From: a virus | Length of the DNA: 64,000 nucleotides | Virus record (IMG/VR): IMGVR_UViG_3300045988_066341 | Strand: one strand, 5' to 3' | Part shown: piece after piece, positions 47,221 through 63,800 of the stretch | Position numbering within the stretch: the stretch's first letter is position 1 | How the letters are laid out: every line of letters starts with the position of its first letter | Notes under the pieces: generated by a model | Databases searched by the model: none | Told to the model about the DNA's origin: nothing | What the model saw: the letters and a program-made list of their open reading frames with translations, nothing else | Made by a program: the position numbers and the translations under genes

Positions 47221-47250
47221 ACAAAAAGCCCCCACAAAAGAGCGGGGGCT
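47221..47250 (-). terminator. intrinsic terminator AGCCCCC-n10-GGGGGCT + UUUUUGUUU
   Basis: 7-bp GC stem (47227-47250) followed on the minus strand by a T-run. It lies directly after the DUF2829-like gene. Confidence 0.7.
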
Positions 47251-47273
47251 AATATCCAAACGCGAGAAGATGA

Positions 47274-47597
47274 TCATAATATCATCCAATCGGTAGCCAG
47301 CATATCAGTCTGAGATGCTAACCAGCCATTTACGATAGTATCATCAGCGGCTTTCATACACAAATAAGCCGTGAACTTGATCTTGTCCGTTTCCGAGTCA
47401 CCATAATTATTAGCAACCCATTTCTTTACTGCATCAGGTAAGGATTTAACCTTATTCACGACCATGTCTGTAGACAAACAGTCTTCAGGACGCTGAAAAA
47501 TAAACATCCCTTTTCCATTCCATCCCTCACGGCAAGCCAACTCTCCTTTCTTCACAGCCTCAATAGCCTCTCCAAATGTCAATCCTTTATCATTCAT
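47274..47597 (-). CDS. DUF2829-family protein (Tad2-like candidate)
   Basis: [34 protein letters not shown] ... [18 protein letters not shown] fits the DUF2829 N- and C-terminal signatures. The start is set at ATG 47597, 22 nt after the -7 box. Confidence 0.7.
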
Positions 47598-47619
47598 GAT
47601 TGTAATTATTTTAATTAAA

Positions 47620-47627
47620 CAAATATA
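47620..47627 (-). promoter_or_regulatory. -7 box TATATTTG in the 44-nt spacer before the DUF2829-like gene
   Basis: Reverse complement of caaatata. Confidence 0.45.
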
Positions 47628-47641
47628 GGTAAAAATAATCA

Positions 47642-48415
47642 TTATTCTTCAACTTTCCCTAACACGACATCCGATATACATCTGGCACACCATCCTACCA
47701 TATAAGCTATAGGCTCTTGATTGTCAGCATGAAACTTGATCCCTAACTCGCTAAGAATATCCATAGAGACATGAAACGCCTCGTGAGAGATCATAGACGG
47801 ATCAACATCCTTGTCATCTATCCACACGACAACCAGTTCCCCGTATTTACCGGTATCCTTAAATCTCACCATAGGGAAAGTAGTCATGGATGGCTCCGAT
47901 CCCACCTCCATCTCAATCTCAATCTCAGAGTCATCCCTTGTCGTAAACCTGTCTATAACATCCTTTGGCTCGCACCCTTTCATCACGAACAAGCTCCTCG
48001 GATATATCTTAGGATCAAACTCATATACTATTTTATCCATTTTCTTTTCACCATTCTTTCTAATATTATGTTTCCCAAAAATAGGATCACGTGGATCCTT
48101 TTTTGGATTATAACTAAACACCTTATCAGTTAATTCTTTAAGTTGATTATTCATCTCCATAAGTCTTATAAAACGATCATTCGTATATGCCTTAAACTCA
48201 TAAACAGGCAACCCGGAAGAGCTGGATATCTCAGCGGAAGGGGATACGACTATAAAATCCCCATCATTAATAATTATGTGCTTATTATCACGCTCCACGG
48301 AATAATATCCATTTCTTTCTGTAACAGATATACCAAAACGTTCTATAGCCTTATTGATATTCACAATATCATATGAATGAAATTTGAATACCTCCGTATT
48401 TAAAGAATATATCAT
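47642..48415 (-). CDS. protein with C-terminal HExxH zincin-like motif (257 aa)
   Basis: HEAFH is encoded at 47771-47785 and is followed by ...IKFHADNQE. The N-terminal half is unassigned. Confidence 0.6.
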
Positions 48416-48690
48416 AACTCTCTTAATTTCCCTATAACCTCAAAACACATCTTACACTCAATCCTACGATACAACTGCCTTACGCCATCTATCGTAGTCC
48501 AATAACGACCACCCTCACGGTGTAGGAACTCGCTCATAACTTTAGTGTCAGCCACATCATGTAAATCATATGAACTGAAACATAACTTACATATATCGTC
48601 AAGATCAAAATAAGTAACCTTATTATACGATATACAACGGATTTGTCCTCCATCAGGAATCTGAACATCGAAAACATCTATCTTCTCCAT
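48412..48690 (-). CDS. hypothetical protein (92 aa), possibly Bro-N/KilA-N-like
   Basis: First gene of the cassette, ATGA-coupled to the next gene. The ...KVTYFDLDDICKL... pattern is only suggestive. Confidence 0.5.
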   Translation of the reverse strand: MEKIDVFDVQIPDGGQIRCISYNKVTYFDLDDICKLCFSSYDLHDVADTKVMSEFLHREGGRYWTTIDGVRQLYRRIECKMCFEVIGKLREL

Positions 48691-48780
48691 ATTAAAAATA
48701 GAGGGATACCGATCCCATCACAGACCTGTATCCCCTTATAATAAATTAGCGACGAAAAGCATGGTGATGGACATGCGCCA
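48691..48780 (-). promoter_or_regulatory. structured 5' leader (hairpin 1 with loop UCCAUCAC; terminator-like hairpin 2 with loop containing GUGAUGG)
   Basis: Hairpin 1 lies at 48759-48776 and hairpin 2 at 48703-48734. UCUAUUUUUAAU then runs directly into AUG 48690. Confidence 0.6.
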
Positions 48781-48811
48781 CAAATGTAATTACAAAATTC
48801 GTAAAAACAAA
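48781..48811 (-). promoter_or_regulatory. promoter: -33 TTTG (48808-48811), 19-nt spacer, -7 TACATTTG (48781-48788)
   Basis: Matches the Bacteroides consensus in both sequence and spacing. Confidence 0.65.
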
Positions 48812-56454: not shown

Positions 56455-56600
56455 GTCTATTTATTTTTGAATTAATAATAACCCCACCTGATGGCGGGCG
56501 TTACAAAGTTCAAAAATTAACAGCCCTAAAATCGTGATATGTGTCATCATCAAAGTACGTCATGTCTTGTAAATGGGATTAATAAGAACCGATACAAGAC

Positions 56601-56635
56601 AAAAAAATCCGGAGCGTATCACTACGACCCGGATT
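56601..56635 (-). terminator. intrinsic terminator AAUCCGG-n16-CCGGAUU + U-run
   Basis: 7-bp stem (56606-56635). The plus-strand A7 run at 56601-56607 gives the U-tract on the minus strand. Confidence 0.7.
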
Positions 56636-56670
56636 CATCACAAATCTATAAAATCCAATGTTTCAATGCT

Positions 56671-56703: not shown

Positions 56704-58941
56704 TTAACTACACGAAAAATCTCGCATCAACTTATTTGTATTAGCAGTGTATTCATTAACTATCTTACTGGATGAGGGATTATCCTCTATCCTTGACAGG
56801 CGGTTATCGTCACTCCTTACCGTAACGTCACCCATCCTTCGTACCATGTTTTCTTGATATGATGATGGATCGGAGTATATAAGATCATCAACGAACCTGT
56901 ATATCGCACCATCAACCGTCTCACCTACCTTCTCATATAAGCCGGATTGGAATGACACGAAATCATCATACCTCTCACGAGCCAAGAACGAACCGTCCGG
57001 TCTCGCCTCGACGCCGCCGTTGACCTCCCGGAGCAGGCCCGGATTCCTTTGGTACAGATACCTGTAAAACCCGACATCCATCATCCTGTCCTGACTATCC
57101 AGATAGAAAAGGTTTCTCATGCTACTGTCACCGGACTCGATAGCCACGTCAAACAGAAGATCCCTTACCTGACCTTCCGGCAACGACATCTCCATGCTTT
57201 TTAACGTACCTCTGTCATGGTGGTTCAAAGATACGTTATAAAATCCATTAAAATCAAGGAAACGTAAGACATTATTATATAAATCCGATTTTTTTAACCT
57301 TTCCTTGATCTGGATCTTCCTCAACGAGGTACAGGATTTGATAAAATCCCGATCCTTTCCCTGCCTAGCCTCGTATCTCCTGAACTCCCGATCAATATCG
57401 ACATCATCCATCTCAGGAGTCACGGGATGTTGGTATATTAATCTGGTAAGGATCATGTTCTCTGTATTCGAGGATGAGATGTTGGACATAACTAGCTTCT
57501 TTATGTTATCCTTGACCACGCCAATATCGGAACGGGAAGCCCCGGCGGGGACCACGCCAGCCGGCAAGTACGAGGACCGCTCTATCCCGATATTGGCCAA
57601 CATCTCATAGGCCTGATCGGTGTCGGTTATCGGGGCTGTGTTATGGTACGTATTCCTACCCATATACAACATGCTCCTATCATACATATCGGAAGGGGAT
57701 GTATTCCCGGACCTTACATACACCATCCTATCCCCAGTAGAATAAGTATCCTGAACCTCGTATATCGGGTTCCCTTTTCCTGTTATCCTATCAAGATCGG
57801 AGATAAAGCTATCGTATACCGAATTGCCGGCCTGTATGGAAGACAACATGACATCCAGCGACGCCATAAGATCACGGATATCCTCCGGTCTGGATATAAT
57901 CATCTCATCGCTGATCGCCTCGCTTATATCCACACCCATGTCGGCAAGATCCATGGCTATGTCATGCAGACGTCCGGCAACGTCCTTGATGTCCTTAAAA
58001 TCATCCATATCGATTATCTCCCCAACCTTATCCCTTAGACCCTTCATATCCTTAGGCATACTGATATACGGTGTGGTACTATTGAAGTACGAGTCGGTAA
58101 TCGTATTTCCGTCCTGACTCCGAACCTCCATACGGGTCATATTACGATACGTGTCATACATCCGATCTGCGTAATCCTGATCCTCCTGATACCAGAGTGC
58201 CAAGGAAGGGTATGGGATGGAGGCGAAAGCCTGATCGAACTCCCGGCGGTCGCTGATACCGCCTACCGCCCTCATGATCGTATCCCTTACCTCTATTGGA
58301 TTCAAGCCCCTTCTCTTTCCTAACGAGTCATATGTATCCTCATATATCATATAATCATCACCAAGACCTGACTCGGAGGACAGGAAATACATATCCTTCT
58401 CATTAAGATTCCCCTCAGACATAAAATCGACAATCCTCCTCATCATATCCCTTACCCGCTCATACTCCGATCGGTTAGTCATGATATTATCAATCTCATC
58501 AGCGTCATACATCCCAGATCGCTCAAGATTGTACCTATTGAGGAATATATCACCGCCGGAAAGGAAGTTAGATACGATCATATCATTAAGATCATTGATA
58601 TTATCAACACCCAAGGAAGTAAGAGTATTATTAATATCCTTAACCTCATCAGCCATGAAATTGCCGGCGAAATAGTTCTTCCGCTTGATAAAGGACATGA
58701 CATCATCATACCTAGGTTCCCCATTACTATCCAGATCATATTCTGATGGCATGGACATCCAGTCGCCAAAGAAGGACACGAAGTCGGGGGAGTAGGCCGT
58801 ACCCCAGACCGATAAGGCCTGCTTCTGGTCGCCCAGCACCTCCATCGCCCTTTGGTATAATCCGGATGGTTGGTCGTTCGGGGCAAGGACATTATCTATC
58901 CCACCCTCCTTATTTTTTATAACATAACAAGATCGTCCCAT
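56704..58941 (-). CDS. 745-aa late protein sharing the N-terminal module of the 2,414-aa protein
   Basis: The start is set at ATG 58941 (MGRSCYVIKNKEGG...), 18 nt after a -7 box. About 65 aa align with the N-terminus of the giant protein (SC.IK.NKEG.I..VL.P.......L; A....TY...F.S.FGDW). Confidence 0.85.
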   Translation of the reverse strand: MGRSCYVIKNKEGGIDNVLAPNDQPSGLYQRAMEVLGDQKQALSVWGTAYSPDFVSFFGDWMSMPSEYDLDSNGEPRYDDVMSFIKRKNYFAGNFMADEVKDINNTLTSLGVDNINDLNDMIVSNFLSGGDIFLNRYNLERSGMYDADEIDNIMTNRSEYERVRDMMRRIVDFMSEGNLNEKDMYFLSSESGLGDDYMIYEDTYDSLGKRRGLNPIEVRDTIMRAVGGISDRREFDQAFASIPYPSLALWYQEDQDYADRMYDTYRNMTRMEVRSQDGNTITDSYFNSTTPYISMPKDMKGLRDKVGEIIDMDDFKDIKDVAGRLHDIAMDLADMGVDISEAISDEMIISRPEDIRDLMASLDVMLSSIQAGNSVYDSFISDLDRITGKGNPIYEVQDTYSTGDRMVYVRSGNTSPSDMYDRSMLYMGRNTYHNTAPITDTDQAYEMLANIGIERSSYLPAGVVPAGASRSDIGVVKDNIKKLVMSNISSSNTENMILTRLIYQHPVTPEMDDVDIDREFRRYEARQGKDRDFIKSCTSLRKIQIKERLKKSDLYNNVLRFLDFNGFYNVSLNHHDRGTLKSMEMSLPEGQVRDLLFDVAIESGDSSMRNLFYLDSQDRMMDVGFYRYLYQRNPGLLREVNGGVEARPDGSFLARERYDDFVSFQSGLYEKVGETVDGAIYRFVDDLIYSDPSSYQENMVRRMGDVTVRSDDNRLSRIEDNPSSSKIVNEYTANTNKLMRDFSCS

Positions 58942-59114: not shown

Positions 59115-59963
59115 TTATCGTTTAGCGAAAATATCTTTATCTGATCTATTCAGAACCCTGCCTTTCAATTCCAAGAACCTAGGCATCCATTCTTTAGATA
59201 TCTTAGACACGATCCACTGAAATCCCTTAGGAGTCACATAGACAGTATTAGTGCCGTAGAACTCGTCATCATTACGATATCTGTAACGAGCATAACCGCT
59301 GTCTATCATCCTTTGGGAAAGCAACCACCTCTTACCGGTCTTAGCGAAGAACTTCTTATCCTCAAGCAATATTCGAAGATTCTTCTCCGCTATATCATAT
59401 CCATGAGCCTCTAGCTTTTCCCGAACCTCTCTGATCAACATATCTGTCTCTTGGGCTATTTCGGCTGTCTTAGCAAACTCAACCATAGGAGCCTGTTCTT
59501 TGATGATGTTATCAGATATCCTTTTAGCCTCTAATGCAAGCTTAGCTTCTTTTTCAGCCCTTTCTCTAGCTTCCACCTCATCAGCATACATCCGTAAAGC
59601 CTCCGAATAGCTAGATGGTATTTTATTTATCACTTTATGAAAAACATCCCTGTAAACATTAAATACAGATCTAACCTTTCTAGCTATAAAATACTCCATA
59701 CAAGATATAGAAATCATATAAACATTTACAGGTCTTCCTACTGTCGTATTTTCGCCATTTGTGGCTAAAATCTCATAATCAATACCTTGCATAAACTGAT
59801 CACTACTTACTAAAGCTCTAACAGCTTTCTCCTTAGCCGAATAAACCAATGGCCATACATCATCTAAATTAACAGGGAATTTATCACCAAGTTTACTTAG
59901 ATTTAAAACCTTTTCAAAATACGATCTGATAGATAAGTCATCACTCAAAACAATATTACACAT
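59115..59963 (-). CDS. phage antirepressor (AntA/AntB-like N-domain + KilAC domain)
   Basis: The N-domain reads FPVNLDDVWPLV...FMQGIDYE...YFIARKV. The C-domain reads APMVEFAKTAE...IREVREKLEAHGY...VYVTPKGFQWI. The start is set at ATG 59963. Confidence 0.75.
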   Translation of the reverse strand: MCNIVLSDDLSIRSYFEKVLNLSKLGDKFPVNLDDVWPLVYSAKEKAVRALVSSDQFMQGIDYEILATNGENTTVGRPVNVYMISISCMEYFIARKVRSVFNVYRDVFHKVINKIPSSYSEALRMYADEVEARERAEKEAKLALEAKRISDNIIKEQAPMVEFAKTAEIAQETDMLIREVREKLEAHGYDIAEKNLRILLEDKKFFAKTGKRWLLSQRMIDSGYARYRYRNDDEFYGTNTVYVTPKGFQWIVSKISKEWMPRFLELKGRVLNRSDKDIFAKR

Positions 59964-60076
59964 AATACAAAACAACAAGGGCCGTTGGCGTCCGTTATTC
60001 CACCAATAGCCCTCATCTATCGCCTACGCCTAGGCGAGTTAATATCTTCTTATGGCCCAATAACGGATGGACACCG
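59964..60076 (-). promoter_or_regulatory. structured ~105-nt 5' leader of the antirepressor gene
   Basis: 9-bp long-range complementarity between 59991-59999 and 60059-60067. GGGCC/GGCCC at 59979-59983 / 60054-60058 is in a crossing arrangement. The palindrome CGCCTAGGCG lies at 60027-60036, and a U-rich tract precedes the AUG. Confidence 0.45.
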
Positions 60077-60107
60077 CAAATATAAGACCTTATTTTGAAA
60101 CTACAAA
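60077..60107 (-). promoter_or_regulatory. promoter: -33 TTTG (60104-60107), 19-nt spacer, -7 TATATTTG (60077-60084)
   Basis: Consensus sequence and spacing. It is followed by CGGTGTCCATC, as in the other two cassette promoters. Confidence 0.65.
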
Positions 60108-60138: not shown

Positions 60139-60738
60139 TCAGCCATATTCCTCTGTCATATATAAAGCGTAGCTATACCTATCCTCTATCATCTCCACCA
60201 CCTTCTTGATATCAGATAAAGTTAGTTTCTTTATCTCCATATTCCTACTATCCATCCTGACAAAAGAGTTCTTGAACTCCTGCTCGGTTATAGCATCCAA
60301 CCTAAATAGATTGTATTTTATAAGCAACTGGCTTACGTCAAATATCAGGATATTAAGATCAATATCATCCTTCAACTCATCAAGAAGATCACGCATCATG
60401 GCTTCGATAGCATCAGTATCAAGCTCCAGTTTCTCGGCTTCCTTCATCAACTTCTTGATAATACCATTGTGCTCGATTATGATGTTAGCATTATCATCAT
60501 CGGTAGGTAAAAGGATATCCATCGTACATTTTATACCAACCTTATCACTAAGTCTTTTATTGAACTCAGTCATATAATCAAAAGCCTGATCCCTACTTAA
60601 TGAGTATGTATGATCAAGCAACTGCTTTTGTCTGACCTTGACAAAATAGTTACTGGTGTATAACATCATCAAGACCTTCACTCGCTGGATGCGTAGGTCT
60701 TGCATGATCTTCCGATGTAAAAAAGAATCTAGTTGCAT
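60139..60738 (-). CDS. hypothetical protein (199 aa)
   Basis: The track ORF 60139..60786 (TTG start) begins inside the GC-rich leader hairpin. The in-frame ATG at 60738 follows the U-rich tract. Confidence 0.6.
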   Translation of the reverse strand: MQLDSFLHRKIMQDLRIQRVKVLMMLYTSNYFVKVRQKQLLDHTYSLSRDQAFDYMTEFNKRLSDKVGIKCTMDILLPTDDDNANIIIEHNGIIKKLMKEAEKLELDTDAIEAMMRDLLDELKDDIDLNILIFDVSQLLIKYNLFRLDAITEQEFKNSFVRMDSRNMEIKKLTLSDIKKVVEMIEDRYSYALYMTEEYG

Positions 60739-60826
60739 AATATAAAGAGTCCCCACCGGGGCCATCACACACCCGACAGGGACCAACTTTTAAATATCTT
60801 ACTCGTCAGGTGATGGACTGACGCCG
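60739..60826 (-). promoter_or_regulatory. structured 5' leader (hairpin 1 with loop UCCAUCAC; terminator-like hairpin 2 with loop containing GUGAUGG)
   Basis: Hairpin 1 lies at 60804-60823 and hairpin 2 at 60749-60783. UCUUUAUAUU then runs into AUG 60738. Confidence 0.6.
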
Positions 60827-60834
60827 CAAAGATA
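60827..60834 (-). promoter_or_regulatory. -7 box TATCTTTG for the 199-aa gene cassette
   Basis: Reverse complement of caaagata. A CTTG element lies 20 nt upstream. Confidence 0.55.
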
Positions 60835-60850
60835 AGTCAAGATATTTTAT

Positions 60851-63800
60851 TTAGCAAGGATTTTCCGCCTCATTTTCTCCGGATACTACGTTACCGTCGG
60901 AAACCAAAGACTTGTCCTCGGCCGCCTTCGTAGGCGAGGCGAACTCCGATGGCAGATCCGGCAGGTTAGGGAACGAGACTTCCGTCTCCTCCTTGGATAC
61001 CTTGTTCTCCTTGATACTCATCCTAAACTTAGGAGCTATGAAAGGATCGTTGTTAAGATCGATGTTGATCGTAACGTCATTCATCAAAATATCCTCCTTA
61101 GTTCTGGAATCACCTATCCATCCTCTTACGTCAGCGGTCATAGGCATCCTGCTAGCCGCTTCCTTGACAGCTTTAAGCCGGTTCTTGATAACATCCACGT
61201 CTCCCGCCAGCGGAATCATATATGTCTTATTATCCAACCCTGATCTGGCTATAGCGTTATTAAGATCCATTATATCATCAATACTTACGCCTCCGCCTAG
61301 ACCCTCCGTAATCCTATCAGCCATCGATCCGATCATGGATGAGAATGACGATATATCCTGATTTTTCAATCTTACGGGGTACAGGTAATTTCTTCCATTT
61401 CCTGTCTTTATAGCTACGACCGGGATACGTGAATCTTTATAGTCACCATACTTGTCCCTGACGATAGCCGTACAGAACGGGAATATATTATACTTAATAT
61501 CATCCCTCATCGTAACCTCCCCATTCTCTATATATCCTACGCTCTCGACTTTACCAACCGTCTCGTTGGTAAAATCATTCTCGGATACCATCAACGTACC
61601 ATTATCATCACTTACGCTAAAATTAGGTCTTCCCGGCAAAACACTGGTAACTGTACCTACGAACGGTATATCAATCTCGCCAGTAACAGATCCTATATTA
61701 TCCCTATATAACTCAAAGGCCCTACTCCTTAAATCAGCGTTACTTCCTTTTGAATCCGGGTCATTGGCTTTCAGTACCGAGACGAAATTGCCGTCGCTAT
61801 CCACGATCTTAATAACCATATTATCAACCAGCTCTCGGTAAGCCGACTTAGTCTCATCAGAATTAGGGTCAACGGCGTTAAGACTATTGTATTTATCATA
61901 CAGTCCCTTGGTGTATGGATCTGACATATCCATCTTAAACCTTACCATATCACCCTTGCGGAGGCTAGCCGCTGCTTCCTGATTCACCGACTCGTTGTTA
62001 GATCCAAACGTATCACCCGTATAATAAGGGACAATAGATCCATCCTGCCCCTTGCGATACACCATGAACCAGATGGAGGTCGACAAGGCGGTTTGCCGCC
62101 CCAATATGACACCGGTAGCGTTCTCGAAAGCCTGAGCGTCATCCTCGCTAATCATCCATCTTGAGTGGTTATCTGACTCTATAACAGTAAATATGTCGGT
62201 TCCGTTGGTGAAATCCATCACCCTTCCATTATCAGTATCAGTGGCATCAGATCTTTTAAGCCCAAGACTGTCCATAAACCTGTCAAGTCTCATTCCGCCA
62301 ACCTCATAATACATGACCCCACCGATCTCTCTCTTCTGGGCCATCAACACCACCGGGTTCTGGGCGGCGTTAACTTCCGTCCTGCCGGTGGATGTCCCGG
62401 GTTCGCTCTCTGTGAGGACATCACCCATAGGTATGGATTTATCGTAATCCTTGACAGCTATACTTCCATTATCATACAACCTCATCCATTCCACGAATTG
62501 AAGAAGAGGATCATCAGAATAGTTATTGATAATATCAATAGCCTCATTAAGCTTATCCTGATCAACCTCATTGCCATTGTCAGCCTCATTCATAAGATCG
62601 TTATAGGTCTTTATAGCCTCCTTAACCTGATCCTGATCAAGACCATTAATATTCATATCTATGATATCATCAATATTATCCTTAATATTATCTGATACAT
62701 TATCATTGATCTTTAATCTATCTATCATTGACTTAGCCCTATTTATCCTAGCTATAGGATTATCGCCAAATCCTTTTACAAGATTATTAATACGATCCTT
62801 ATTGTTATCATATATCTGCTTTTCCCTAGGAGATAAAATATCCTCATTACCGTTCCAGATCTTTATGGCTATATCATTGGCTCTATCATCTGAAGGATTT
62901 ATAATATCCTCATCATCAGGAACCCTCTCAACTATATTACTTTCATCAGCCTTAATCTCATTCTCCATAGATCTGGCTATCATATGATTATATGTCTTGA
63001 ACATAAATGCCTCATCCTCTCCTATAAGACCATCTTGGTAAGCCTTGTCTATGGCTTGATCATTAGCGTAAAGGGCGTTTGCTTCAGGATTATCAGTATT
63101 CCTGAAATCATACTTGCTATCATCCTCCTCATAAGTCTTACCCCATGCGTTCGACAATATCTTCATGAACCCGCGCTCCTGCGCCCGGATGAATCTTCTG
63201 TCACGCATACGACGAAGAGACTCGTTTATATTCTTATAAGCCACAAGATTATGACGATACTCGCTAAGCAACGCCATGGCCTCTTTATGATTATCGACCC
63301 CACGGGTAGACACGGCATTCTCAAAATCAACTATAGTCTCATAAGCCGCCATAAGATCTGAGACGCTAATCTTAGAATCATTATCATTTAAAGATAACTT
63401 AGATATATCCACATCTGAATTAATCAACGTGCTTAACTTTCTCTCCAAGGCAATTCTTTCTTCCGTCAATTTAAGAAGCCTATCATTCTCCTCAGCCAAC
63501 TTAGTCTTATCAGACTCAATTGCTTCCTTCGATGCAACCTTTTGTTGAGTATTTAAAATATTCCTCTCCATCTTCCGTATATCATTCGTCAGCTTCCGGA
63601 GTTTTTCGAGAGCCTTGCTTGAATCAGGATTAAGATGAGAGTATATATCAAGGGCATCACCTATACCCGTCTTATATATCCTGTTTAACTGATTGGTGAT
63701 ATCATTCAAATTATCCTTAGCCTCAATACCGTTATATACCATATTGGAGATATAGGCGTTAAAAGACCTGTTCGGGATACCCTCAGTAAGTGAGTCGGCG

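Follow-up and report, generated by a model that had tools for sequence, protein, structure and literature searches.

Conserved two-hairpin leaders with complementary loops between promoter and start codon of gene cassettes in a human-gut phage

Results

The leaders and their surroundings

In this work we have analysed a stretch of 64,000 nucleotides of viral DNA (IMG/VR virus record IMGVR_UViG_3300045988_066341; the whole stretch is called the window below) and, within it, a type of leader which lies on the minus strand between a promoter and a start codon and in which the loops of two successive hairpins are complementary to each other. The window comes from a tailed phage of the human gut, with plus-strand replication genes at 1-39.7 kb and minus-strand virion genes after 39.7 kb, among them those for BACON-domain proteins and a 2428-aa virion protein. 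An earlier note had described two such leaders, here called T1 and T2, in front of accessory cassettes. Its coordinates and sequences for both proved correct throughout when read on the minus strand, as did the U-rich tract and the AUG which follows it (48690 and 60738). Both leaders were thus confirmed; their number was not, since there are three in the window, and T3, which had been overlooked, was found by listing all TAnnTTTG boxes. A fourth type, T4, was found by inspecting the regions upstream of ant genes, and is present in csAssE-Sib, the 151-kb phage which is the nearest named relative of the window phage (helicase identity 52%) and is followed by Cellulophaga phage phi4:1. The features of all four types are collected in Table 1.

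Table 1. Positions of the leaders, their parts and the adjoining genes (window coordinates unless stated otherwise; ORF, open reading frame)
Feature	Position	Strand	Remarks
T1 leader, whole	48811-48688	minus	promoter to start codon
T1 -33 element	48808..48811	minus	TTTG
T1 -7 box	48781..48788	minus	TACATTTG; Bacteroidota sigma-A type, 19 nt 3' of the -33 TTTG
T1 predicted +1	G48776 (or C48777)	minus	
T1 hairpin 1	48759..48776	minus	GCAUG[UCCAUCAC]CAUGC; loop 1 = 48771-48764
T1 spacer	48736..48758	minus	UUUUCGUCGCUAAUUUAUUAUAA; AU-rich, 23 nt
T1 hairpin 2	48702..48735	minus	GGGGAUAC.GGUCU[GUGAUG]GGAUC.GUAUCCCU
T1 U-rich tract	48691..48702	minus	UCUAUUUUUAAU; abuts AUG 48690-48688
T1 cassette, whole	47227..48690	minus	
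T1 cassette gene 1	48690-48412	minus	92-aa ORF; no Pfam match
T1 cassette gene 2	48415-47642	minus	257-aa ORF; no Pfam match
T1 cassette last gene	47642-47274	minus	Tad2-like 122-aa ORF; PF11195, E=1.5e-22
Intrinsic terminator closing T1 cassette	47250-47227	minus	strong
T2 leader, whole	60857-60736	minus	promoter to start codon
T2 promoter	60827..60857	minus	TTG 60857-60855, 20-nt spacer, -7 box TATCTTTG 60834-60827
T2 predicted +1	G60822	minus	
T2 hairpin 1	60804..60823	minus	(C)GUCAG[UCCAUCAC]CUGAC(G); loop 1 = 60817-60810
T2 hairpin 2	60749..60783	minus	12-bp stem with three G.U pairs
T2 U-rich tract	60748-60739	minus	UCUUUAUAUU; then AUG 60738
T2 gene	60139-60738	minus	199-aa ORF; function not recognised
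T3 leader, whole	60107-59961	minus	between 199-aa gene and Ant/KilAC gene
T3 promoter	60077..60107	minus	-33 TTTG 60107-60104, 19-nt spacer, -7 box TATATTTG 60084-60077
T3 predicted +1	G60072	minus	
T3 hairpin 1	60055..60072	minus	GUCCA[UCCGUUAU]UGGGC; loop 1 = 60067-60060
T3 additional middle hairpin	60020..60037	minus	UCGCCUA[GGCG]UAGGCGA; unchanged in 16 aligned variants
T3 hairpin 2	59977..60014	minus	10-nt apical loop GAAUAACGGA
T3 U-rich tract	59978-59964	minus	UUGUUGUUUUGUAUU; then probable AUG 59963
Ant/KilAC antirepressor-like gene with its U tract	59115..59978	minus	PF03374, E=5.7e-11
Terminator-like hairpin 3' of Ant/KilAC gene	58991-58974	minus	
T4 leader	L456 45476-45607		csAssE-Sib, OR575929.1; upstream of antirepressor gene at 95605

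T1, T2 and T3 share one plan: a Bacteroidota promoter with -33 and -7 elements, a 5-bp hairpin with an 8-nt loop (hairpin 1), an AU-rich spacer, a GC-rich hairpin (hairpin 2), a U-rich tract and the AUG. Loop 1 starts exactly 9 nt 3' of the -7 box in all three, and the AUG comes 0-3 nt after the U-rich tract, with an A at -3. As the note had reported, T1 and T2 carry identical 8-nt loops on compensatory hairpin 1 stems, GCAUG/CAUGC against (C)GUCAG/CUGAC(G), and the same complementary heptamer, CCAUCAC in loop 1 and GUGAUGG in hairpin 2 (48721-48715 in T1, 60768-60762 in T2). Alignment of the two leaders gave the common blocks TTTGNGGCG...GTCCATCACC and GGTNTGTGATGGNNNCGGT. The apical loop of hairpin 2 in T3 holds AUAACGGA (59998-59991), an exact 8-nt complement of its loop 1. 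RNAfold, which the note had proposed as a check, predicted both hairpins in T1 and T2 (z-scores -2.7 and -2.8), and the fold of T4 has a z-score of -3.7. In T4 the -7 box TATCTTTG precedes a long hairpin, with AUCCCAC as its 7-nt loop, then a spacer, a second long hairpin whose 10-nt loop UAGUGGGAUC includes the complement GUGGGAU, U8 and the AUG. The T4 spacer motif AAAGAUAUUUUUGG is similar to UAAGAUAUUUAAAAG of T2 and AGAAGAUAUUAAC of T3, and all three spacers have AAGAUAUU in common.

The -7 box occupies -12 to -5 in Flavobacterium (PMC9723704) and is 'centred at -7' in B. thetaiotaomicron (PMC7366714). From this we infer that transcription would begin, to within 1 nt, at the G which opens the 5-bp stem of hairpin 1, and hairpin 1 would then be the 5'-terminal hairpin of the RNA. 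The note had counted on a start site upstream of hairpin 1, and the consensus agrees with it in so far as the predicted start is the first base of that hairpin.

Could such an arrangement arise by chance? The loop 1 8-mer has 7 copies in the window against 2.5 expected; the remaining copies are inside ORFs of the plus strand and lack a hairpin, so that it is the architecture, and not the 8-mer as such, which carries the signal. Two scans for the architecture alone, one based on minimum free energy and one on stems, covered both strands of the window (128 kb) and gave 2-3 chance matches per 128 kb. The two from the former scan were both AT-rich and on the plus strand, and the three from the latter all fell within ORFs; among the matches, T1, T2 and T3 alone lie between a -7 box and a start codon. 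Chance is also made improbable by the recurrence of T1 and T2 in other contigs and by T3 and T4, which follow the plan with different loops that are complementary as well.

Covariation of loops and stems

Evidence for an RNA structure comes from the comparison of the types. Loop 1 is complementary to the apex of hairpin 2 over 7-8 nt in all four, and the pairs differ: CCAUCAC/GUGAUGG in T1 and T2, UCCGUUAU/AUAACGGA in the T3 subtype of the window (T3a), UCCGUUGC/GUAACGGA in subtype T3b, to which 12 T3 copies belong and in which hairpin 1 reads GUCUA[UCCGUUGC]UAGAC, and AUCCCAC/GUGGGAU in T4. Loss of this complementarity in homologous leaders had been named beforehand as what would refute the prediction; it is kept, and it covaries, in T1/T2, T3a, T3b and T4. 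The loops align in register (UCCAUCAC of T1/T2 with UCCGUUAU of T3 for loop 1; GUGAUGG(G/C) with AUAACGGA for loop 2), loop 1 of T1/T2 differs from that of T3 at positions 4, 6 and 8, and each difference is compensated in loop 2. For an alignment across types, hairpin 1 and the loop-2 octamer of 10 distinct variants were concatenated. In it 94.6% of the cells are paired, and changes on both sides affect four of the five pairs of the hairpin 1 stem and three of the eight pairs of the loop-loop helix (C-G to U-A twice and A-U to G-C). None of 500 shuffles reached this pairing score and no slid register approached it.

Within T3, the alignment of 16 distinct sequences has 99.4% of its cells paired and seven pairs changed on both sides (0 of 500 shuffles); in the stem of hairpin 2, 5 of 14 pairs are altered on both sides. 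Between T3a and T3b, a U-A pair of the loop-loop helix becomes C-G and a C-G pair of the hairpin 1 stem becomes U-A, and more two-sided changes occur in hairpin 2. The T3b leader of contig L100 was retrieved through its T2 element and its T3 was therefore unselected; set against the closest T3a it has 12 differences, every one of which falls in hairpins 1 and 2 (56 columns), while the 40 intervening columns are identical, a clustering whose chance is by our own arithmetic (56/96)^12, or about 0.0015. A covariance model built from the 16 T3 sequences, as the note had advised, recovered T3 in a search and found neither T1, T2 nor T4, so that the deep homology of the types rests on their layout and the AAGAUAUU spacer motif.

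One T3 copy, L461 (IMGVR_UViG_3300045988_095946), is a natural recombinant of a T3b hairpin 1 (loop UCCGUUGC) and a T3a hairpin 2 (loop AUAACGGA). Its loops form six Watson-Crick pairs and one G.U pair with a terminal mismatch, and it could serve as a 'mismatched' control.

The way the loops vary bears on the possibility that the leader is an antitermination site which, like those for N (nut) or Q, depends on a protein, and at which a phage or host factor binding hairpin 1 or the kissing complex would modify the polymerase so that it reads through hairpin 2. A promoter-proximal hairpin followed by a terminator is the layout of lambda N/nut and of P_R'-t_R' (6S RNA)/Q, and here, too, several copies with shared loops occur per genome. 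The loops vary between paralogues, however, and yet stay complementary, which argues for RNA-RNA pairing rather than a fixed sequence recognised by a protein, and the part of the window proteome that was scanned yielded no N-, Q- or NusG-like gene. We regard this explanation as improbable.

The concentration of the T3a/T3b changes in the pairing elements, with an invariant spacer, would also suit a small RNA gene. The terminated leader, about 85-115 nt long, would then act in trans through its loops or its spacer, for example on sibling leaders, in the same or a co-infecting phage, as a determinant of RNA immunity or incompatibility, and the downstream gene would be expressed by read-through. 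The layout of promoter, 5' hairpin, AU-rich linker and terminator is canonical for such a gene, there are several loop specificities, and a spacer motif (AAGAUAUU) is shared by three types. The P1/P7 c4 and P4 CI leader RNAs act in the same fashion, on ant or on the alpha operon. Against it stand the presence of both partners on one molecule, where the loops would be occupied in cis, the lack of a convincing trans target in the window, in which the other GTGATGGA copies are within ORFs, and the lack of a match to the C4 family of Rfam. On balance a small RNA gene seems unlikely.

Distribution and modularity

The leader module is about 90-125 nt long and occurs in several hundred viral contigs, most of which come from one large gut data set; T1 and T2 are each present almost unchanged in more than 100. 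Scans of IMG/VR which were anchored on the spacers and left the loops free gave at least about 120 copies of T1, at least 164 of T2 and, in a complete scan, 105 of T3, and the T4 loop specificity was found on 109 contigs. The T1 spacer is nearly invariant among these copies. Conservation of T1 sets in exactly at the -33 TTTG, with varying flanks upstream (tgatat, catggt, aactgc, tttggt and others), and conservation of the module reaches as far as the AUG or ends inside the 3' arm of hairpin 2. Where this arm has been replaced, pairing and U tract are maintained or improved (the T1 variants of the arm still pair), and in front of a different downstream gene the U tract is retained or has grown longer, to U7-U9 in many variants. 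T1 is sometimes followed by a 103-aa ORF in place of the 92-aa one; behind T3 there are genes for KilA-N+ANT, Bro-N+ANT, unknown-domain+ANT or T5orf172/MUG113 proteins, and at least four different N-termini occur behind T4. As far as sequence comparison can tell, the leader is shown by this to be a portable module which extends from the promoter to the start codon and behind which genes are exchanged. The 'accessory cassettes' of the earlier note are indeed self-contained, and the T1 and T2 units are autonomous promoter-to-terminator units inside the structural gene block; T1 and T2, though, usually precede one conserved gene each and only occasionally alternatives, and the swappable slot is the antirepressor slot of T3 and T4.

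Searches further afield returned little. Among 120 matches to T1 and T2 in genome contigs there were two true copies (L430 and L340), the others being chance matches, and they led to no assignment of a host. L340 (NZ_JBHMEP010000029.1, 4.4 kb, labelled Vibrio olivae) carries a T2 leader of the gut-phage type, and its Vibrio label is probably due to contamination of the assembly. Megablast of the cassettes against GenBank phages found only three unannotated faecal fragments. A scan for the T1/T2 loops on other stems, with C-G or G-C as the next pair, gave random matches and the variant L174, a T1 hairpin 1 in which a U-A pair has become a U.G wobble.

In another contig, L521 (IMGVR_UViG_3300029856_000001, 1300-1750), hairpin 1 of a T2 copy is precisely deleted (TTTGCG|ACGAG) and foreign DNA replaces the sequence 3' of GUGAUGG at the apex of hairpin 2; the two partners of the loop pairing have disappeared jointly. 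About 300 nt downstream lies an ORF, MTMKTEMKVLLYIKRS..., whose N-terminus looks integrase-like by eye.

Folding energies and the terminator-shaped hairpin

With the RNA starting at the predicted +1, hairpin 1 by itself is worth a weak -2.8 to -5.1 kcal/mol; hairpin 2 is strong. For the loop-loop duplexes of the four types the value is -8.5 to -10.6 kcal/mol. As a nested pairing, the loop-loop helix comes out 9-10 kcal/mol worse than the two-hairpin fold, so that the contact is possible only as a kissing complex or pseudoknot on top of both hairpins; nor did this comparison of folds find a competing antiterminator helix. By sequence, all four types have what a kissing-loop contact would require, at least 6 contiguous Watson-Crick nucleotides kept in evolution.

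The sense strand folds better than the antisense strand by 6-16 kcal/mol in all four types, because of 3-8 G.U pairs. Might the leaders nevertheless act as DNA, as operator half-sites, as recombination sites for the exchange of cassettes or as hairpin or cruciform DNA? The loops do lie as an inverted repeat with about 49-70 bp between its halves, the modules border on genes that are swapped and the foreign insertion in L521 lies at the hairpin 2 apex. The G.U pairs, however, tie the structure to one strand, there is covariation in the stems on either side of each 'half-site', the geometry is unlike that of integron attC and no recombinase gene adjoins the cassettes among the scanned ORFs. A role at the DNA level is unlikely, and we give it hardly any credence.

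With a GC-rich stem directly followed by a U-rich tract, hairpin 2 has the make-up of an intrinsic terminator and resembles the real terminators of the window. The note had ascribed this geometry to both leaders: for T1 the terminator scan bears it out, but the T2 U tract is weak and T2 was not flagged. Tracts of U5-U9 are found in T3, T4 and many T1/T2 variants.

The position of these elements would also suit another function, that of a 5' untranslated region which stabilises the messenger and organises translation with no termination involved. Through hairpin 1 at its 5' end and the contact of the loops, the leader would be compact and RNase-resistant, and hairpin 2 would keep the U/A-rich stretch single-stranded as a landing site for ribosomes that initiate without a Shine-Dalgarno sequence. 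In bacterial mRNAs, 5'-terminal stem-loops shield the transcript from decay, and hairpin 1 lies at the predicted +1 with 0-1 unpaired nucleotides before it; the closeness of the AUG to the U tract, the A at -3 and the poor quality of the T2 tract as a terminator tail also fit. This explanation leaves open why the partner of loop 1 should be the apex of a terminator-shaped hairpin and why the U tract is lengthened to U7-U9, and hairpin 1 alone is weak. We consider it rather unlikely.

Genes and sequences beside the leaders

The last gene of the T1 cassette encodes a Tad2-like protein, by its sequence a candidate anti-Thoeris sponge. The T1 leader also contains a 12-codon ORF, MSITMLFVANLL (48774-48736, minus strand), which starts 2 nt after the predicted +1 and spans hairpin 1, with its UAA stop just 5' of hairpin 2; no leader AUG is present in the T2 or T3 leaders. 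The stop codon of a 1040-aa upstream ORF lies inside the T2 promoter region (60853-60851). Near-identical copies of the 199-aa protein behind T2 occur on more than 800 contigs, and this wide spread indicates that the phage lineage is extremely common in human gut data. The protein has more than 2000 near-identical database relatives, single sequence clusters of it are found on 600-800 contigs of up to 161 kb, and it is usually called 9 codons further upstream (208 aa), with a start inside hairpin 2. In a search for distant genomes that carry it, all 120 matches listed were at least 98% identical.

Elsewhere in the window, between the 773-aa and 335-aa genes (56600-56648, minus strand), a -7-like box, TAGATTTG, lies only a few bases 5' of the hairpin AAUCCGG...CCGGAUU and U7, a further instance of overlap between a promoter-like box and a terminator-like hairpin.

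In csAssE-Sib, a promoter-anchored descriptor gave only noise and missed the real T4 leader. A simpler leader precedes the 'ring protein' gene of this phage (L456 8035-8088; OR575929.1 58035-58088): the -7 box TATCTTTG is immediately followed by the hairpin GGAGGUCAGG-UUUGUUU-CCUGUCCUCC, U8 and the AUG, and the predicted transcript would thus open with the terminator-shaped hairpin. A 5'-terminal hairpin, with no second one behind it, also precedes ant at 57049. Among the structural genes (L455 45751-46326, L456 8986-15413) the record also has annotations of a diversity-generating retroelement (VR/TR with reverse transcriptase), two TnpB genes, a Ro60-related protein and several tRNAs; none of these was seen in the scanned part of the window.

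Discussion

The comparison of the four leader types supports well the existence of a structured sense-strand RNA with a loop-loop, probably kissing, contact, and we consider it very probable that the element is a real structured RNA. The proposal from which we started, of a functional RNA in which loop 1 pairs with loop 2 of a terminator-shaped hairpin, gains its support from the covarying complementarity. What the sequences show is the anatomy of the leaders and the maintenance in evolution of three helices: hairpin 1, hairpin 2 and the loop-loop helix. The note had not recognised the element as a known riboswitch or put-type element, and this agrees with Rfam 15, which had no match in the whole window at gathering thresholds and none at E<=10 in 300-nt stretches around T1 and T2. 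We class the leader as a cis-regulatory structured leader or attenuator outside any described family, previously undescribed, and as a good candidate for a new Rfam family.

What could the contact between the loops be for? Our preferred reading, which we hold tentatively and at somewhat less than even chances, is that it tunes read-through of a terminator inside the leader. Hairpin 2 and its U tract would be an intrinsic terminator lying wholly within the transcript; like the real terminators of the phage which it resembles, it should stop a fraction of the polymerases that set out from the cassette promoter. Most transcripts made by the host RNA polymerase would then be short leader RNAs, except where the terminator is bypassed. 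Loop 1 might capture the emerging apex of hairpin 2 before the 3' arm is transcribed and so tether a bulky structure to the nascent terminator, which would set the read-through into the downstream gene. The genes gated in this manner would be those for antirepressor-like proteins (T3, T4), the Tad2-like anti-defence cassette (T1) and the 199-aa protein (T2). We favour tuning of read-through in view of a preprint (Bushhouse, Fu and Lucks, bioRxiv 10.64898/2026.06.17.733018) in which termination is shown to be suppressed by structures adjacent to the terminator, through competition for the RNA exit channel.

Several points weigh against this reading. A loop contact at the apex is no rival to the pairing of the terminator stem; the leader is therefore no classical antiterminator, and whether the contact would weaken or strengthen termination is a guess. 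The start sites and the termination follow from consensus rules of other Bacteroidota. In about 20-25% of the 164 T2 copies listed, TTCG replaces the TTTG of the -7 box; the T2 U tract UCUUUAUAUU is weak as a terminator, and the terminator scan flagged neither T2 nor T3. Transcripts that read in from the upstream gene also carry hairpin 1, and the element alone cannot tell them from those of its own promoter. The covariation comes from few independent lineages, with four loop codes in two phage groups. About half of the singleton variants of T1-T3 preserve the pairing as wobbles and about half disrupt it, which is uninformative; among rare variants, the excess of C-to-U changes in loop 1, which leave a U.G pair (10), over the corresponding G-to-A changes on the loop 2 side, which abolish the pair (3), is only suggestive as a signal of RNA pairing.

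A bolder version of action in trans, which strikes us as distinctly unlikely, is that the leaders constitute an RNA 'specificity code', in which short terminated RNAs kiss matching nascent leaders in trans. T1 and T2 would then share one code and T3 have another, and the targets would be the leaders of siblings or of co-infecting relatives. The immunity or incompatibility groups CCAUCAC, UCCGUUAU, UCCGUUGC and AUCCCAC would time the antirepressor and anti-defence genes, and diversifying selection for new specificities would account for the clustering of the T3a/T3b changes in the pairing elements.

A few further candidates were rejected. Leader-peptide attenuation would need a leader ORF, which is present in T1 only; mimicry of the 16S rRNA 3' end by AUCACC of loop 1 fails for T3 and T4, which do not have it; and pairing of loop 1 with the start codon (AUGGA) is possible in T1 only. 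Integron attC sites, each of which is one long imperfect hairpin with R''/L''-L'/R' boxes, do not fit two separate hairpins with complementary loops, and no integrase lies near the cassettes in the scanned ORFs. For DNA hairpin promoters of the N4 type the geometry is wrong and a host-type promoter is present.

To our knowledge, control at the RNA level is almost uncharted in phages of Bacteroidota. Bacteroidota do without Shine-Dalgarno-led initiation and sigma-70 promoters. The leaders precede genes connected with host immunity (Tad2-like) and with repression (Ant, KilA-N, Bro-N, T5orf172), and to judge from their sequences they are probably a built-in gate on the antirepressor and anti-defence genes of very common gut phages. 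The at least four natural 'orthogonal' loop pairs amount to ready-made mutants and compensatory variants, and if the contact does tune termination, the leader would be a compact part for controlling gene expression in Bacteroides.

Comparison with known systems

The 'tug-of-war' type of antitermination (10.64898/2026.06.17.733018) resembles our preferred reading, tuned read-through, in that a stable structure stands by a terminator with which it has no sequence overlap. There, the structure is located directly upstream of the terminator and stabilised by a ligand, whereas here it would be brought to the terminator by the loop-loop helix, and no ligand pocket is apparent. Contacts between loops are also known from plasmids: ColE1 RNA I/II, R1 CopA/CopT, pT181 and pIP501 use kissing loops in antisense control or attenuation, and in pT181 and pIP501 the loop contact decides whether a leader terminator forms. 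In these systems fully complementary loop helices of 6-8 nt determine specificity and diverge through paired changes, much as they would in the leaders. The plasmid RNAs, however, act in trans and come from opposite strands, whereas both loops are here on one sense transcript.

The put sites of HK022 are cis-acting, protein-independent antiterminator RNAs of about 70 nt with two adjacent stem-loops; they influence downstream terminators through the very polymerase that transcribes them. Our leaders likewise have two hairpins just after a promoter and more than one copy per genome, but the hairpins are 20-45 nt apart, the second is terminator-shaped and abuts the start codon, and put stems are not known to kiss. 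The lambda nut site, with boxA, a 15-nt boxB, a GNRA-like pentaloop and N, differs from leaders with a varying loop of 8 nt (T1-T3) or 7 nt (T4). ANTAR substrates consist of two short hairpins, the second of which overlaps a terminator, and have hexaloops with conserved A1 and G4, whereas the loops described here are of 8 nt and 6-10 nt and are mutually complementary, not alike. In T4-type phages, promoter-early stem-loop (PeSL) modules bound variable accessory genes and can mediate their swapping. A module conserved from -33 to the AUG, with exchanged genes behind T3 and T4, is much in the same manner; the promoters, however, are of the Bacteroidota type, and a PeSL has one stem-loop and no reported loop-loop pairing.

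By analogy, the functionally closest precedents are the leader RNAs c4 of P1/P7 and CI of P4 (C4 family of Rfam), which pair downstream in their own operon and so restrain ant or early genes. In those phages the target is the ribosome-binding site (c4) or the flanking seqA/seqC (CI), and the RNA is excised by processing. In our leaders hairpin loops supply both partners, and the target lies at the apex of hairpin 2, 25-35 nt upstream of the AUG; the host belongs to the Bacteroidota, processing signals are not known and the Rfam covariance model gave no match. What c4 and CI have in common with the leaders of the gut phages is complementarity of a leader to its own downstream transcript, with matched variation on both sides (four loop pairs here), and, for T3 and T4, the place in front of genes of the antirepressor type.

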